Origin: an uncultured Bacteroides sp. | Lineage (GTDB): Bacteria > Bacillota > Clostridia > Lachnospirales > Lachnospiraceae | NCBI GenBank assembly: GCA_964635615.1 | Contig: CAZWNL010000011.1 | Coordinates: forward strand, 13,314 to 77,313 | Direction: 5' to 3' | Length of the DNA stretch: 64,000 bases | Part shown: piece by piece, positions 51,183-55,903 of the stretch | How positions within the stretch are numbered: the stretch's first letter is position 1 | Layout: every line of letters starts with the position of its first letter | Made by a program: the position numbers and the translations under genes | Notes under the pieces: generated by a model | The model's input: only the letters and a program-made list of their open reading frames with translations | What the model was told of the DNA's origin: nothing | Databases searched by the model: none

Positions 51183-51240
51183 TATAGTGTATAGGTATTT
51201 GCCAAAATGCTAGAATAAATAATTGAGAGGAGAATCTAAA

Positions 51241-52947
51241 ATGGATTACGGAACACTTGTGGAGCAGGCACTATCAGGAAATCAGGATGCATGGAACAGT
51301 CTTTACCAGATGACTTATCAAAAAATATATTATACATGCATTTGCCTTGTTAAAAAGGAACAGGATGCACTTGATATGGTTCAAGAGGCATATACCTCGG
51401 CGTGGGAGCATTTGGGGGAACTTAAGGACAGACAACAGTTTGAAGCGTGGCTTATAAGAATTGCAGTAAATAAATGTAAAAACTTTTTAAAGAAAATCAA
51501 TATGTTTTATTTGAATGATGCTGATGCCATGGAGGACTGTGAGGAGGAAAATGAAAATTTTCTTCCTGAAAGCTATGCGGCACAGCAGGAAAAACGGCAG
51601 CTTGTATTTCGTATTATGAGCAATGTTTTATCGGAAACACTGTACAGAACAGTTATCCTGTTTTATTTTGATGAAATGACAATACAGGAAATTGCAGAGC
51701 TTATGGAGTGTCCGGTTGGTACGGTTAAATACCGCCTAAATGCAGCCCGCAGAAAAATAAAGGAGGGTGTGCTTGCCTATGAACAGCAAAGCGGAGAGAA
51801 AATCTACTCTGTTGCAGGTATACCATTTCTTGCGCTGCTTTTTCACTATCAGGTATACGGAATCCCACCTATGGTAAAGGCAGCAGTGGCAGCTTCTGTT
51901 GCGGGCAGTGTGACTACGGAAACAGCAATGGCAACGGCAGGGCAGACAGCGACAGCGGGAGCAGTTGGAGGACAGGCAGCAGCGGGCACGGCAGCGGGAG
52001 CAGTTGGAGAACAGGCGGCAGCGGGCACGGCAGCGAAAATAGGAGGATATGCTATGACAAAGGCTTTAAAGACAAAAATAATAGCAGGAATAGCGGCACT
52101 TGCTGTACTGGGAGGTGCAGCGGGCTTTATAATTGCAAACAATGACAAGGATGATAATAAAGTGGATAATGGATCAACACAGCTTGAAAGCGTGACAAAG
52201 GGCGGAGATTCTCGTATTGTGTTTGAATATAATGCTTACAACCATGTATCAAATGAATTTAATGAAACGGTATCTGATGATATGTTTAAACGGTATAATC
52301 TCAGTTATCTTGAAAGTCAGGTTTGGGATAAAAAGGCATACAATTTCCTTATTCCATTGGAGTTTGATGGGCAAAGATTAGATAATCAAGCATGGGATTA
52401 TCACACACGGAAGCTGGAGGACGTAACGAATATAAAAAATGTACAGCTTGGTTATGGCACTCGTTCATTGGCATATGTTGATGACGAGTACTTCCCTGAT
52501 TCTGAGGCTTTGGATATCGGATTATATATAAATGATACGAGCAGCACCCAGCCATGGGAGGAGGAGTATAGCGATGAGGGGCTGCGGACTAGTCTTGGCG
52601 GAAGCTACGGAGGATACAGTAAATATAGGCTTAGCGACATTCAGAGTCTGACGCGAAGCGTTGCAAACACCGATGAGGGAGTCAATCCTTTTGGATTTTC
52701 CTATACTTTGGAGAAGGGTACAATGACCGTTGAGGAGAAAGAGTTTATCTCGGGTGAGATAATCATTCGAGAAATTCCTTACAACCTTATAAGATTTTCC
52801 GGACTTACGGAGGATAGCATTAACGATTGGGGCTTTTTGTATTTCGATGTTTCAGAAGATGCATCCAAGCAGGCTGTCATGGATGATTTGTCCCAGGCAC
52901 TGATAGATTCCTTCAAGGCTGTTGAGTGGGAAGTGATTTTTAAATAA
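51241..52947 (+). CDS. ECF sigma-70 factor fused to an Ala/Gly linker, a TM helix and an extracytoplasmic domain
   Basis: Region 2 DALDMVQEAY...FEAWLIRIAVNKC; region 4 EIAELMECPVGTVKYRLNAAR; TM IIAGIAALAVLGGAAGFII. Confidence 0.85.
   Translation: MDYGTLVEQALSGNQDAWNSLYQMTYQKIYYTCICLVKKEQDALDMVQEAYTSAWEHLGELKDRQQFEAWLIRIAVNKCKNFLKKINMFYLNDADAMEDCEEENENFLPESYAAQQEKRQLVFRIMSNVLSETLYRTVILFYFDEMTIQEIAELMECPVGTVKYRLNAARRKIKEGVLAYEQQSGEKIYSVAGIPFLALLFHYQVYGIPPMVKAAVAASVAGSVTTETAMATAGQTATAGAVGGQAAAGTAAGAVGEQAAAGTAAKIGGYAMTKALKTKIIAGIAALAVLGGAAGFIIANNDKDDNKVDNGSTQLESVTKGGDSRIVFEYNAYNHVSNEFNETVSDDMFKRYNLSYLESQVWDKKAYNFLIPLEFDGQRLDNQAWDYHTRKLEDVTNIKNVQLGYGTRSLAYVDDEYFPDSEALDIGLYINDTSSTQPWEEEYSDEGLRTSLGGSYGGYSKYRLSDIQSLTRSVANTDEGVNPFGFSYTLEKGTMTVEEKEFISGEIIIREIPYNLIRFSGLTEDSINDWGFLYFDVSEDASKQAVMDDLSQALIDSFKAVEWEVIFK
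51955..52035 (+). repeat. 39-bp tandem repeat x2 (AGAVG(G/E)QAAAGTA) in the sigma linker
   Basis: GCGGGAGCAGTTGGAG(G/A)ACAGGC(A/G)GCAGCGGGCACGGCA repeated. Confidence 0.8.
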
Positions 52948-53046: not shown

Positions 53047-53120
53047 GCGGTTGTAGCTCAGCTGGATAGAGCACTTGGCTACGGACCAAGGTGTCGGGAG
53101 TTCGAATCTTCTCAGCCGCG
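53047..53120 (+). tRNA. tRNA-Arg(ACG)
   Basis: Acceptor GCGGTTG/CAGCCGC, D arm GCTC..GAGC, anticodon arm CTTGG-CTACGGA-CCAAG, TTCGAAT; CCA not encoded. Confidence 0.95.
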
Positions 53121-53126
53121 CGAATA

Positions 53127-53186: not shown

Positions 53187-53223
53187 ATTTTATAGGACTG
53201 CAACGTTTGAGATATTAGTTTAG

Positions 53224-53379
53224 ATTCAGAGGATAGCAGAGTATGCGCCTGAAACCGGAGTTGTAAGACTCTTGCGGTTGACGGAAAAGCAATATAATAA
53301 TATTTATATGGTGTCGGGAGAGCCGGATTATCAGGAAAAAACAGTTGGCGTGAATGCACATATTATGCTACAATATTAA
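53224..53379 (+). pseudogene. cas2: 3' remnant of a Cas2-like gene (type II-like Cas2 C-terminal half)
   Basis: Start-less frame IQRIAEYAPETGVVRLLRLTEKQYNNIYMVSGEPDYQEKTVGVNAHIMLQY*. The P..G.VR.L.LTEKQY pattern is the C-terminal signature I recognise from type II Cas2; an in-frame TAG lies at 53221. Confidence 0.55.
53345..53374 (+). promoter_or_regulatory. Candidate promoter reading into the repeat array
   Basis: TTGGCG-18bp-TACAAT with an extended -10 (TGcTACAAT) at the end of the cas2 remnant. Confidence 0.35.
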
Positions 53380-53478
53380 TAGCGATAAATATAAATTACT
53401 ATATTTAGATGTATAACAAAGGATTAATACTAAATGCCGTAGTTGAATGACCCGCCCAAAATGGTGCATCGTTCAACA

Positions 53479-53610
53479 AATATAGAAACTAATTATGATG
53501 ATAAAGAAAATAAAAGATTTAATAAATATGATATAATATATTCAGCAGGTGAAGTAGCTCAACTAAAAATGAATAAAGAATTTGGTTGTATAAACTTTGA
53601 AGACAAATAG
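53479..53610 (+). pseudogene. Start-less 3' gene fragment directly after repeat 1
   Basis: Open frame NIETNYDDKENKRFNKYDIIYSAGEVAQLKMNKEFGCINFEDK* begins at the repeat edge; very AT-rich. Confidence 0.45.
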
Positions 53611-53638
53611 TAATTTGTTGAATAGATTTGGAGATAAT

Positions 53639-54283
53639 ATGAAAGATTTTTTTAATAATATACGAACACCTAATAAAACCTTAAAAATGAATAAAAAAAT
53701 TATAAATACAATTCTAATATTTTTATTAGGAATAATGTTAGGGGTATTTTCTAAATGGTTAGATAATTTAGGGATTAATGATGCGATATGGTGGCAACAT
53801 ATACTAGGAATATTAGATTTAGGAAATGTTTTTTCTGATTTTGGAATATGGATATTCCTAGCAATCACTATTTCGGTGTTTAGTACAACACCATTAAAAG
53901 CAAGTTTAAATGTATTTTTATTTTTTATAGGTATGACAGTAAGTTACCATTTATATACAATTATGTTCAGTGGTTTTAATCCTAAAAGTTATATGATGAT
54001 TTGGTATGGAATAACTGCTATAACTCCAATACTTGCATTTATTTGTTGGTATGCAAAAGGAAATAATAAAATTTCAATTATAATTTCTAGTGTAATATTA
54101 GCAGTAATGTTATTGTTTTCTTTTAGTATTGGTATTTGGTATTTTTATTTTAAAAGTATAATAGACACATTATTATTTTTAGGGACAATGCTTGTTTTAT
54201 ATGTGAAGCCAAAAAATAGTGCTTATAGTTTATTATTTGCAGTAGTGTTAGCATTAACATATTGTTTAAGATTATATATATAA
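53639..54283 (+). CDS. Multi-pass membrane protein (DUF6518-like), AT-rich
   Basis: ATG 53639 after GGAG; LGVFSKWLD, IWIFLAITISVFS.TP..ASLNVFLFFIGM; several TM segments. Confidence 0.65.
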   Translation: MKDFFNNIRTPNKTLKMNKKIINTILIFLLGIMLGVFSKWLDNLGINDAIWWQHILGILDLGNVFSDFGIWIFLAITISVFSTTPLKASLNVFLFFIGMTVSYHLYTIMFSGFNPKSYMMIWYGITAITPILAFICWYAKGNNKISIIISSVILAVMLLFSFSIGIWYFYFKSIIDTLLFLGTMLVLYVKPKNSAYSLLFAVVLALTYCLRLYI

Positions 54284-54319
54284 CAACAACTTACAATTTA
54301 ACGATTAGAGGTGTAATTA

Positions 54320-54386
54320 TGGATTATGAAAAATTAGAAATTTATCAACTAAAGCCAAAAGTCTAGTAATAATATTGGAAGATTTA
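54320..54386 (+). pseudogene. 5' gene fragment truncated at repeat 2
   Basis: RBS GAGGTG then ATG: MDYEKLEIYQLKPK, continuing as SLVIILEDL in the shifted frame up to the repeat. Confidence 0.4.
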
Positions 54387-54422
54387 GCTGAATGACCCGC
54401 CCAAAATGGTGCATCGTTCAAC

Positions 54423-54584
54423 CAAAACGTTTTTGTGATGATGTTCTTTATTGTGTTGATGCCGCCTTTATACTATGTTTTTATAGGGCTTTGGTGGAAC
54501 AACATAATACTGACGGTCACGGGCGGAATATTTTTGATCGTTCATTTTGTTTATGTTATGGGTAATCTGAGGTTGGAAAATTAG
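54423..54584 (+). pseudogene. Start-less 3' fragment of a membrane-protein gene directly after repeat 2
   Basis: Frame QNVFVMMFFIVLMPPLYYVFIGLWWNNIILTVTGGIFLIVHFVYVMGNLRLEN* begins at the repeat edge; no RBS. Confidence 0.5.
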
Positions 54585-54647
54585 CTGCGGCTTGTCGCGT
54601 AAATTGAGAGATACAAGAATAATAGTGTAAGCAGGAGGAGCGTTACA

Positions 54648-55220
54648 GTGGTTCATTCATACGAAAAAGAAATGGAAGCGGCATTGAGTGAATATTTCGG
54701 CAAAATAAAAGATTACAGCGATTTTGCTGGATACTATTCAGATACAGATCCCGAGTATATAAACGAAATTCGTAACGGTAATTTTGTTATTCATCGGAGC
54801 AGCGCACTTGATTATTCGTTTTTTAAGCGGAATTACGGATATGAAATGCCGGAAGTTTTAAAAGCGTATTATTCTTACGCTCATCCGCCAGTTATAGGCC
54901 ATCATAGGCTCAACCCCTTTGAAAGGGAGGCTATAATACTTTATTCCTCTATTAATCGGGAACGTTTTGCTGGATTGATCTCGGCGGCGGATTATTGGAA
55001 AAAGTACGGTATAGAGAAGTATATTCCAATCGGTTACGTTACATACAATGGATCAGCTGTTGTTCTGGAACGGGATACGGGAAGGGTTTTCGTGGAGTTT
55101 GGCTTCGCGGAGGATCCTGCGGACGACGAGGACGGGAAATTATATCCCACTCCGCTTGCGGAGGATCTGATGACCTTTATACGGGAAACAGAGCCTTACG
55201 GTTTGGGGGTAAGCGAATGA
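54648..55220 (+). CDS. SMI1/KNR4 (SUKH)-like immunity protein
   Basis: GTG start after AGGAGG; YGYEMPEVLKAYY, YIPIG, DTGRVF, LAEDLMTFI pattern. Confidence 0.6.
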   Translation: MVHSYEKEMEAALSEYFGKIKDYSDFAGYYSDTDPEYINEIRNGNFVIHRSSALDYSFFKRNYGYEMPEVLKAYYSYAHPPVIGHHRLNPFEREAIILYSSINRERFAGLISAADYWKKYGIEKYIPIGYVTYNGSAVVLERDTGRVFVEFGFAEDPADDEDGKLYPTPLAEDLMTFIRETEPYGLGVSE

Positions 55221-55284
55221 AAAGAGAGCTTTGCTGCAGTACGTGTATCGGCGGCGGAGAAGGACATATCTTTTGGGAGACTGA

Positions 55285-55752
55285 GTGATAATGGATATTA
55301 AAGATTTTTTATTTGGTGAGCGATTTACAAATGAAGATTTTGCTCTTTTTTCAGAAACTGAATTATCAGAAATAGAGGTGTTATCTGAGAAAGAAGCAAG
55401 TAATATATGGTATGATTACTGTGATGATGAAATATTGCCCAAAAGTTCATTTGCTATTAAAAACGGACTTGGTAAGTTGCTGCTTATTACGAATGATTGC
55501 GGTTGGGGCGAGGAAAAAGAAGAGAATGATACAAGATTATTAATTAAAAACACTTTGAGTAAATATATTGATGGTCATATTAACGTATGCTATTATAGTG
55601 ATTGTGCATTAAGAGTTTCTACGAGATTATTTTGTGAAAAATGGTCTGATTTTTGTTATCCATCAGATTATTTGATAATTGATTTTGGCGAAAAAGCACT
55701 TTTATACTATGAAGATAGGCTCTTTTATCTCGATAAAATAGATAAAACATGA
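55285..55752 (+). CDS. DUF2947-like hypothetical protein, AT-rich
   Basis: LSEKEASNIW...WSDFCYPSD pattern; abrupt shift to AT-rich DNA near 55280. Confidence 0.5.
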   Translation: MIMDIKDFLFGERFTNEDFALFSETELSEIEVLSEKEASNIWYDYCDDEILPKSSFAIKNGLGKLLLITNDCGWGEEKEENDTRLLIKNTLSKYIDGHINVCYYSDCALRVSTRLFCEKWSDFCYPSDYLIIDFGEKALLYYEDRLFYLDKIDKT

Positions 55753-55800
55753 ATATTCTGAGTTGAATGACTAATTTCGCATCAAATAGCTCCATAAAAT

Positions 55801-55829: not shown

Positions 55830-55831
55830 AG

Positions 55832-55903
55832 CTGGGCTACAAGGATTCGAACCTTGAAATGCTGGAGTCAGAGTCCAGTGCCTTACCATTTGGCGATAGC
55901 CCA
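55832..55903 (-). tRNA. tRNA-Gln(CTG)
   Basis: Minus strand TGGGCTATCGCCAAATGGTAAGGCACTGGACTCTGACTCCAGCATTTCAAGGTTCGAATCCTTGTAGCCCAG; anticodon arm CTGGA-CTCTGAC-TCCAG. Confidence 0.95.

Follow-up and report, generated by a model that had tools for sequence, protein, structure and literature searches.

Pieces of DNA long enough to carry genes have been described, as isolated cases, between the repeats of CRISPR arrays: erm(N) lies between repeats of a Campylobacter coli type II-C array, where it is the single exception (PMC11823653), and in Sulfolobus islandicus LAL14/1 a 2-kilobase (kb) 'pseudo-spacer', SiL-E1, is found inside a CRISPR array (PMC3718332). Here, we analyse a stretch of 64,000 nucleotides (nt), referred to as the window, from a genome of the Lachnospiraceae (contig CAZWNL010000011.1, positions 13,314 to 77,313), in which the 3' end of a cas2 gene, a leader and two copies of a 36-nt repeat (R1 and R2) lie between a tRNA-Arg and a tRNA-Gln gene, and in which the units that follow the repeats are gene-bearing inserts of 909 and 1339 base pairs (bp). 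In our view, the window probably holds the inactive relic of an integron-like gene array built by Cas1-Cas2. No published description of such gene-bearing, kb-unit Cas1-Cas2 arrays was found in the searchable literature, and annotation pipelines label the genes concerned 'type II Cas1/Cas2'.

In the proposed model, a module of cas1, cas2, leader and array would have entered the gap between the two tRNA genes in the ancestor of three species of the genus Wujia (Lachnospiraceae). The module would belong to a widespread lineage that has no effector and goes back to the adaptation genes of type II CRISPR systems; in place of spacers of about 30 nt, its units would be arbitrary pieces of DNA of 0.07-8 kb, mostly holding one to three complete genes. 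Cas1-Cas2 would take a long linear DNA and join its two 3' ends to the leader-proximal repeat, one on either side, and gap repair would duplicate that repeat, as in ordinary spacer acquisition without the length ruler. The array would be transcribed from a conserved promoter within the 3'-terminal part of cas2, and co-oriented promoterless genes would be expressed and kept by selection, making the array integron-like in effect. Later loss of cas1 and of half of cas2 would have frozen the array at two, perhaps three, inserts, R1, R2 and a decayed terminal repeat.

An array remnant between two tRNA genes

The features of the locus are collected in Table 1. Most of them had been proposed in an earlier sequence-only reading and hold up here: both convergent tRNA genes were confirmed, R1 is exact and R2 carries one mismatch, the repeat edges are sharp at 36 nt, and all four open reading frames (ORFs) between the repeats are on the + strand, pointing away from the leader. 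Besides R1 and R2, neither the window nor the rest of the 2.83-Mb assembly holds a copy of the 36-mer, and by chance none would be expected. The repeat forms an imperfect dyad centred on an AA, with GTTGAA/TTCAAC arms, and R1 is predicted to fold over its full length into a hairpin of -14.7 kcal/mol (z -4.4) on the strand that the putative promoter would transcribe, the other strand folding more weakly.

Table 1. Features of the locus between the two tRNA genes, in coordinates of the window.
Feature	Position	Strand	Evidence
tRNA-Arg (ACG), left border of the insertion site	53047-53121	+	ARAGORN; Rfam tRNA, 58 bits
Filler between tRNA-Arg terminator and cas2 remnant	53192-53226		alignment of window, L013 and L014
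cas2 3' remnant (Cas2 residues 54-101 and stop)	53227-53379	+	blastp, tblastn
Promoter-like site TTGGCG-N18-(TG)TACAAT in cas2 3' end, reading into the array	53345-53374	+	consensus scan
Leader, 62 nt, repeat-proximal motif ...ACTAAATGCCGTA	53380-53441	+	conserved in L013 and intact loci
Repeat R1, GTTGAATGACCCGCCCAAAATGGTGCATCGTTCAAC	53442-53477	+	exact consensus copy
Insert 1, 909 bp, one complete gene (53639-54283) for a 214-residue multi-pass membrane protein	53478-54386	+	composition, homologues
Repeat R2, one mismatch (T2>C)	54387-54422	+	36-mer search, repeat hidden Markov model (HMM)
Insert 2, 1339 bp, three ORFs	54423-55761	+	ORFs, Pfam, composition
Insert 2: membrane peptide, 49 residues	54435-54584	+	ORF call
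Insert 2: ORF, 190 residues	54648-55220	+	no family match
Insert 2: DUF2947 ORF, 153 residues	55291-55752	+	Pfam PF11163, E 3e-7
R3, candidate degenerate terminal repeat (GTTGAATGAC and diverged 3' half)	55762-55793	+	11-mer match
tRNA-Gln (CTG), right border of the insertion site	55831-55903	-	ARAGORN, Rfam

The 51-codon frame upstream of R1, which had been read as a Cas2 remnant, is 79% identical to the intact 101-residue Cas2 of related loci (blastp E 5e-28), and is the sole such match in the whole genome (tblastn, E 7e-22). The intact homologue passes the Cas2 model TIGR01573, whereas Pfam returned nothing for the 51-residue remnant at E up to 10, a false negative that reflects the shortness of the fragment and that the comparison with intact Cas2 resolved. 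The leader, likewise proposed before, agrees with the leader sequence conserved among intact loci (CTATATTTRG...ACTAAAT..GT(A/G)). At the end of cas2 in those loci, the last codons hold the site TTGGCA-N18-TGnTATAAT, whose -10 box extends across the stop codon, and this conserved site is taken to be the promoter of the array. The sequence-only reading had placed the integrase elsewhere or assumed its local deletion: the window module has lost cas1 together with the 5' half of cas2, no cognate cas1 was found in a search of the whole genome, and intact cas1-cas2 genes are present in relatives. Cas9 (TIGR01865) has no match in the genome either. One other Cas1 is encoded in the genome, in a CRISPR-Cas locus of class 1 outside the window (G000 contig C8:7240-15560). 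This locus has its own array, is unrelated to the 36-mer and holds ORFs that, named by eye, comprise cas4, cas3, cas5 and cas7-like genes of an I-B-like cascade.

The module as a whole is an insertion, since the tRNA-Arg and tRNA-Gln genes are separated by 64-182 nt, without repeat or cas sequence, in 11 of the 12 other congeneric genomes; the twelfth carries an unrelated 3.8-kb insert there. Only three genomes, each of a different species, have the module at this site, namely that of the window (G000), G057 and G054, and their inserts at the site all differ, as had been predicted for strains sharing the tRNA site. The same cas2 remnant and leader are kept in G054 (locus L013); in G057 (locus L014) cas2 is wholly gone and the last 22 nt of the leader are kept. 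The filler at the left junction (35-45 nt) is common to both sister genomes and missing from the empty sites, and a sequence search returned no match to it anywhere. Within the array of G054 (L013:11060-11148), a second cas2 3' end (…VGVNAHIML*) comes with a shortened leader and a badly decayed repeat, which suggests two tandem modules or a rearrangement. An Rfam scan returned the two tRNAs and no further match.

The third, degenerate repeat of the sequence-only reading stands in part. R3 has an exact 11-mer, AGTTGAATGAC, and a displaced GCATC in common with the repeat, but the repeat HMM does not detect it. Immediately ahead of the tRNA-Gln terminator, the window reads GTTGAATGACTAATTTCGCATC... 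and G057 reads GCTGAATGCCTAATTTCACAT.... As the same degenerate element occupies the same place in both, the most fitting reading of R3 is a decayed terminal repeat, left from the array of their common ancestor.

The two inserts differ in composition. Insert 1 has a guanine-plus-cytosine (GC) content of about 23%, compared with about 40% in the flanks, and its protein has 1522 homologues at 75-91% identity in metagenome contigs of about 25% GC, where they lie within unrelated gene clusters; judged from this, the gene is of foreign origin. The closest DNA (93%) covers the gene with 36 bp upstream and 16 bp downstream only, and since homologous DNA stops there, the donor cut points cannot be read. 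Relatives of a 44-codon open frame at the left edge of insert 1 were sought and none was detectable. The ORFs of insert 2 have no match in NCBIfam. Its GC content falls from about 45% to about 30% near position 55250, on which account insert 2 may represent two inserts fused through repeat loss. Fusion of this kind is seen in L122, where a 3239-nt unit begins with what in L046 is a separate unit of 461 nt. Outside the array, directly upstream of tRNA-Arg and conserved in G057, the window (51223-52947) encodes a 574-residue protein with an extracytoplasmic function sigma-factor N-terminus and a long C-terminal extension that includes an Ala/Gly/Thr-rich repeat stretch with a local GC peak of 0.575.

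A family of kilobase-spaced repeats linked to cas1-cas2

The repeat is present in at least 240 public contigs of gut Clostridia. The family scan used a degenerate core pattern on one genome per species and on metagenome contigs, at least 120 loci each, and the figures for 240 loci and 215 spacings refer to these among the matches listed. In the genome scan, which covered Lachnospiraceae, Saccharofermentans, Flavonifractor, Intestinimonas and others, 230 copies were found with a spacing of 37-3303 nt (median 760) and uniform orientation in 119 of 120 loci; the metagenome scan gave 227 copies with a median spacing of 680 nt and uniform orientation in 118 of 120, so that orientation is uniform in 237 of the 240. 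Not one of the 215 spacings falls at the CRISPR period of about 66 nt, and spacings reach 8 kb; the two smallest are abutting repeats, and the shortest true spacer measures 68 nt. Two circumstances that the sequence-only reading had named as contrary to it, a dispersed high-copy element and ordinary short spacers at homologous loci, are thus not what is found. Within the window's genus, the repeat occurs in 7 of 58 other genomes, co-oriented at kb spacing with 1-4 copies (one or two clusters) each, and in none of 42 sampled genomes of other genera. Up to 10 copies per locus are seen elsewhere, compared with two good copies in the window. Repeats are identical within an array and variant by lineage, with the last repeat decayed; variation at positions 1-2 was considered as acquisition-derived and rejected, as it proved lineage-specific. 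Opposite-strand copies were detected with the repeat HMM in 3 of the 240 loci, a search that a weakly complementary anti-repeat would escape. An assumed likeness of the repeat to those of Cas13b/Cas13d (GTTG...CAAC with an internal A/T run) was dropped once type II Cas1-Cas2 had been found.

Two further occurrences of the repeat can be mentioned here. Eight predicted viral stretches in IMG/VR (L173-L180, e.g. IMGVR_UViG_3300028570_000015) carry the kb-spaced repeat at up to 7 copies per contig, and no cas genes were found in these eight. In the cultured type strain Lachnospira eligens ATCC 27750, the second replicon (627 kb; NC_012780.1; L159:4986-6143) has an annotated cas2 together with the leader and two copies of the repeat, 712 nt from each other.

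When the ORFs of the loci were clustered, the commonest neighbours of the arrays were a 301-residue Cas1 and a 101-residue Cas2, encoded about 65 nt upstream of the first repeat and reading toward it. Intact cas1-cas2 with the leader was found in 17 loci (10 genome and 7 metagenome), cas remnants in 28 further genome loci and some cas match in 52 of the 120 metagenome loci, in each case among those listed. The same layout is reached from the other end: a search from Cas1 returned 1642 homologues at E up to 1e-20, including one 90%-identity cluster of 1007 members, and kb-spaced repeats follow right after cas2 on two long contigs, with three other contigs breaking at the first repeat. Together, these loci bear out the prediction of intact cas1-cas2 genes followed by repeats at 0.07-8 kb, and no effector-like gene was found beside the cas1-cas2 arrays in the loci examined. 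Cas9 scores above the cut-off in 3 of 12 host genomes with intact modules, always on other contigs.

The Cas1 scores 241 bits with the type II model TIGR03639 (cut-off 120), has its closest structures in the II-A Cas1 of Enterococcus faecalis and Streptococcus pyogenes (5xvn, 4zkj) and keeps the catalytic Glu/His/Glu across the clade. In a tree built from a small, hand-picked sample, the Cas1 proteins of kb-spaced arrays form a clade (support 98/99) on a long stem, with one 46%-identical sequence as sister. Next in similarity, among 400 Lachnospiraceae genera, come Cas1 proteins at 35% identity that belong to ordinary cas9-cas1-cas2 loci with 66-nt arrays.

The inserts themselves were compared in a set of 113 unique units of 68-3267 nt. 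In 85 of 104 units (82%, p 4e-11) the longest ORF runs in the direction of the repeat, and many inserts begin just upstream of a ribosome-binding site. The unit ends are mirror images: A occurs at +3/+4 in 62%/54% and T at -4/-3 in 57%/59%, both 3' ends reading ...TTNN, a pattern expected of an integrase with two-fold symmetry that acts on 3' ends. A purine stands first in 59% of inserts. Some genes are cut at the edges, such as an antisense catA that lacks about 50 N-terminal residues and a fragment of a DEDD-exonuclease gene that opens another unit. The contents are miscellaneous and include chemoreceptors, LemA/DUF3137, pyridoxal-phosphate enzymes, hisD, AbiEii, Fic, an IS256 transposase (the only transposase in 101 ORFs scanned), a Nim-like protein below its family cut-off and a ribosomal-protection-type ABC-F. 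From the conserved site at the end of cas2 and the co-orientation of the longest ORFs, the inserts would be expressed.

Evidence for turnover comes from six records in which cas1, cas2 and leader are at least 99.75% identical (L075, L153, L104, L026, L077 and a Campylobacter plasmid). L153 stops at the leader, and the other five carry four different first inserts, that of L026 being the insert of L104 with an IS256 inside. The transposon-borne Cas1 falls in the 1007-member cluster. On the C. coli conjugative plasmid p13786 (NZ_OQ553946.1, 46450-49743; L158:12013-15306), whose cas genes and those of the Clostridial transposon-borne copy are 99.9% identical, the order is tet(O), truncated cas1, cas2, leader, repeat, a 1458-nt unit with GNAT and aph(2'')-Ii, repeat, aph(3')-IIIa; this arrangement was found in no other plasmid among the 72,556 searched. 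Resistance-type cargo comprises this GNAT and aph(2'')-Ii unit, the catA fragment and the ABC-F gene. Gut Clostridia may harbour an active, horizontally mobile, effector-less Cas1-Cas2 that writes arbitrary kb DNA, with entire genes among it, into the leader-proximal repeat for expression from the cas2-end promoter, a reading that we advance tentatively, at somewhat less than even confidence. Such a system might amount to a CRISPR-derived counterpart of the integron in Gram-positive bacteria, carrying resistance-type genes and having arrived on a C. coli plasmid, and to this we are likewise not ready to commit ourselves.

Three observations concern the surroundings of the cas genes. The most widespread copy of the module (L075:1311-6453, also in L104, L069, L031 and L153) adjoins genes for an XRE regulator, a Mob_Pre relaxase and a DUF4368 large serine recombinase, a context that presumably resembles the Tn4451 family of mobilisable transposons. 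In the genome of L086, a full repeat lies upstream of a 5'-truncated cas1 (L152:9189-10310), beside phage-like tail and lysin genes, and truncated cas1, cas2 and leader are consequently enclosed by two repeats. In L144 (11286-16147), cas1-cas2 and three serine recombinase genes are followed downstream by two convergent arrays, one of three + copies and next to it one of three - copies, and some of the inserts carry phage scaffold and Prp-like genes.

Weighing the model and its alternatives

From linkage and anatomy we infer that Cas1-Cas2 itself inserts the long DNA. This is favoured because the array adjoins the leader, full-length repeats are duplicated, repeats are homogeneous by lineage, the last repeat is decayed and the insert ends are symmetric. 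The central claim of the sequence-only reading, a Cas1-Cas2-captured, integron-like gene array, is accordingly supported by the comparative loci, while insertion by Cas1-Cas2 and expression are only what we infer from them.

Several points weigh against this model. No Cas1-Cas2 is known from biochemical or in vivo work to make full-site integrations of kb DNA, and type II-A acquisition, where studied, requires Cas9 and Csn2. About half of the informative loci (42) have no cas sequence within 1.5 kb or more. An orphan unit of repeat, lipoprotein gene and repeat in G054 (contig C2; L012:7825-8689) has neither leader nor cas genes; it lies at a hypervariable intergenic spot whose length varies between 83 nt and 2.7 kb among six relatives. 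The repeat is missing there in all six, the spot also holds long nested palindromes, and junction alignment gave no clean target site. The model fits this unit only as the insertion of a whole module followed by complete cas loss. Inserts below 200 nt are rare (5th percentile 238-278 nt), and a ruler-less enzyme fed with cellular DNA fragments should yield many short ones. The edges also appear too orderly for random fragments: 11 of 109 units end exactly at a hairpin and T-run, compared with 1.5% of internal positions, and edges cut long open frames in 37-43%, compared with 78% for random fragments of the window's genome, so that frame-sparing, terminator-matched edges must come from selection or a defined substrate. 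Finally, almost no inserts are common to different arrays, too few for leader-end polarity to be read.

The main rival is a recombinase acting on the palindromic repeat, secondary recombination and cDNA (complementary DNA) capture being lesser ones. A site-specific recombinase, either integron-like or the large serine recombinase of a carrier transposon, would move circular cassettes at the 36-bp site, with cas1-cas2 as passenger or relic. The dyad about a central AA is like that of serine-recombinase sites, large serine recombinase genes (Resolvase, Recombinase and Zn ribbon) lie beside the transposon-borne modules and in L144, the inserts are mostly whole, co-oriented genes, and many units lack cas genes, one of them at a site that is repeat-free in relatives. 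No such recombinase gene, however, lies near the chromosomal intact loci L022, L045, L051, L095 and L143, and the sole conserved neighbours of the arrays are cas1, cas2 and leader, with the catalytic residues of Cas1 kept across the clade. Truncated genes at insert edges do not suit the exchange of cassettes either, and a crossover within the repeat would not yield the mirror-image composition just inside both junctions. We regard this explanation as unlikely, though the best placed of the alternatives.

The long units could instead be secondary, with Cas1-Cas2 having inserted short spacers only and the rest having come from homologous recombination of existing short spacers with matching mobile DNA, from fusion through repeat loss or from transposons that landed in spacers. 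Such an origin is one of two scenarios offered for the S. islandicus 'pseudo-spacer' (PMC3718332), and both the fused units of L046 and L122 and the IS256 in the L026 insert show that processes of this kind do occur. None of the 215 listed spacings, however, keeps a period of about 66 nt, a single insert carries a transposase, and arrays behind near-identical cas genes are wholly different, which makes a secondary origin rather improbable.

Less probable still is that the units are cDNA copies of mRNAs, reverse-transcribed by a reverse transcriptase acting in trans and integrated by Cas1-Cas2. The predominant co-orientation of the inserts, their sizes, which are like those of mono- to tricistronic mRNAs, the start of many of them just upstream of a ribosome-binding site and the terminator-like ends of the 11 units described above would all suit transcripts. 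Against this, a reverse transcriptase gene was present in none of the loci whose genes were examined, the purine preference at the first base is slight and the compositional bias is mirror-symmetric at both ends, and antisense and truncated genes stand at insert edges. An ordinary decaying type II CRISPR array with two unrelated later insertions, the wider pattern being coincidental, would account for the two good repeats and cas2 fragment of the window taken alone, but it is contradicted by the same architecture in hundreds of contigs, including behind intact cas genes, and we give it next to no weight.

Comparison with known systems

If the proposed model is true, CRISPR adaptation machinery has been repurposed from immune memory to a gene-acquisition platform, a role so far assigned to integrons, which to our knowledge are not found in Firmicutes. 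Gut commensals would then have a hitherto unrecognised route to gather and pass on accessory and resistance genes, with a module that travels, as its near-identical transposon-borne copies and the Campylobacter plasmid indicate. A two-protein enzyme that places kb DNA at a defined 36-bp site without homology would also be of interest for genome engineering. Whatever the mechanism, the layout is robust in more than 240 contigs.

With the type II adaptation modules used as comparators (E. faecalis and S. pyogenes II-A, and II-C-like loci of Lachnospiraceae), the system shares a type II Cas1, a TIGR01573 Cas2 and the order cas1-cas2-leader-array, as well as a 36-nt repeat with GTT...AAC ends that is homogeneous within the array and decayed at its end. 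In contrast to these modules, cas9 and csn2 are not adjacent, Cas9 being wholly absent from 9 of 12 host genomes; the units measure 0.07-8 kb as opposed to 30 nt; Cas1 shares no more than about 35% identity with the closest Cas9-linked Cas1 found; and the repeat is self-complementary from end to end, whereas type II repeats normally pair with a tracrRNA. Of the features of a canonical CRISPR array, 36-nt repeats and cas1-cas2 with a leader are present, and short uniform spacers (26-72 nt) are not.

Like integrons, these arrays consist of mostly promoterless, co-oriented genes, miscellaneous and of the resistance type, arranged in one direction downstream of a conserved promoter next to the integrase genes; they are found on mobile elements, and decayed arrays without an integrase are common, comparable to clusters of attC sites lacking integron-integrases (CALINs). 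They differ from integrons in that cas1-cas2 takes the place of intI, an identical 36-bp unit bounds each insert on both sides, some inserts consist of parts of genes or lie antisense, and the insert ends have a symmetric composition bias. The repeat was also compared with known recombination sites and dispersed elements. An attC site (57-141 bp, R''-L''...L'-R', variable in sequence) was rejected by eye, without an attC model, for the fixed 36-bp sequence and the opposite order of the GTTGAA/TTCAAC arms; a dif/Xer-type site was rejected on arm order and length and for want of a linked tyrosine recombinase. Phage_integrase had no match in the genes scanned beside the arrays, whose neighbours are cas1-cas2 and, in a subset, XRE, Mob_Pre and serine recombinase genes. 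A dispersed repeat, such as a repetitive extragenic palindrome, a miniature inverted-repeat transposable element or the end of an insertion sequence, was rejected as well, the two copies in 2.83 Mb being co-oriented.

Casposons, the Cas1-solo transposons, are alike in that a Cas1-family integrase moves kb DNA and duplicates its target. They carry Cas1 and PolB inside terminal inverted repeats and move themselves, whereas here Cas1-Cas2 lies outside the array, Cas2 and a leader are present, no PolB was found among the genes called in the loci examined, and unrelated cargoes stand in tandem at one site. Closest in appearance to the window are erm(N) and SiL-E1, in which a gene-bearing piece likewise lies between two perfect repeats beside cas genes. 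Those are lone exceptions among spacers of 30-40 nt in effector-bearing systems, whereas the arrays described here have long units throughout and no effector, and their layout defines an entire clade of Cas1.

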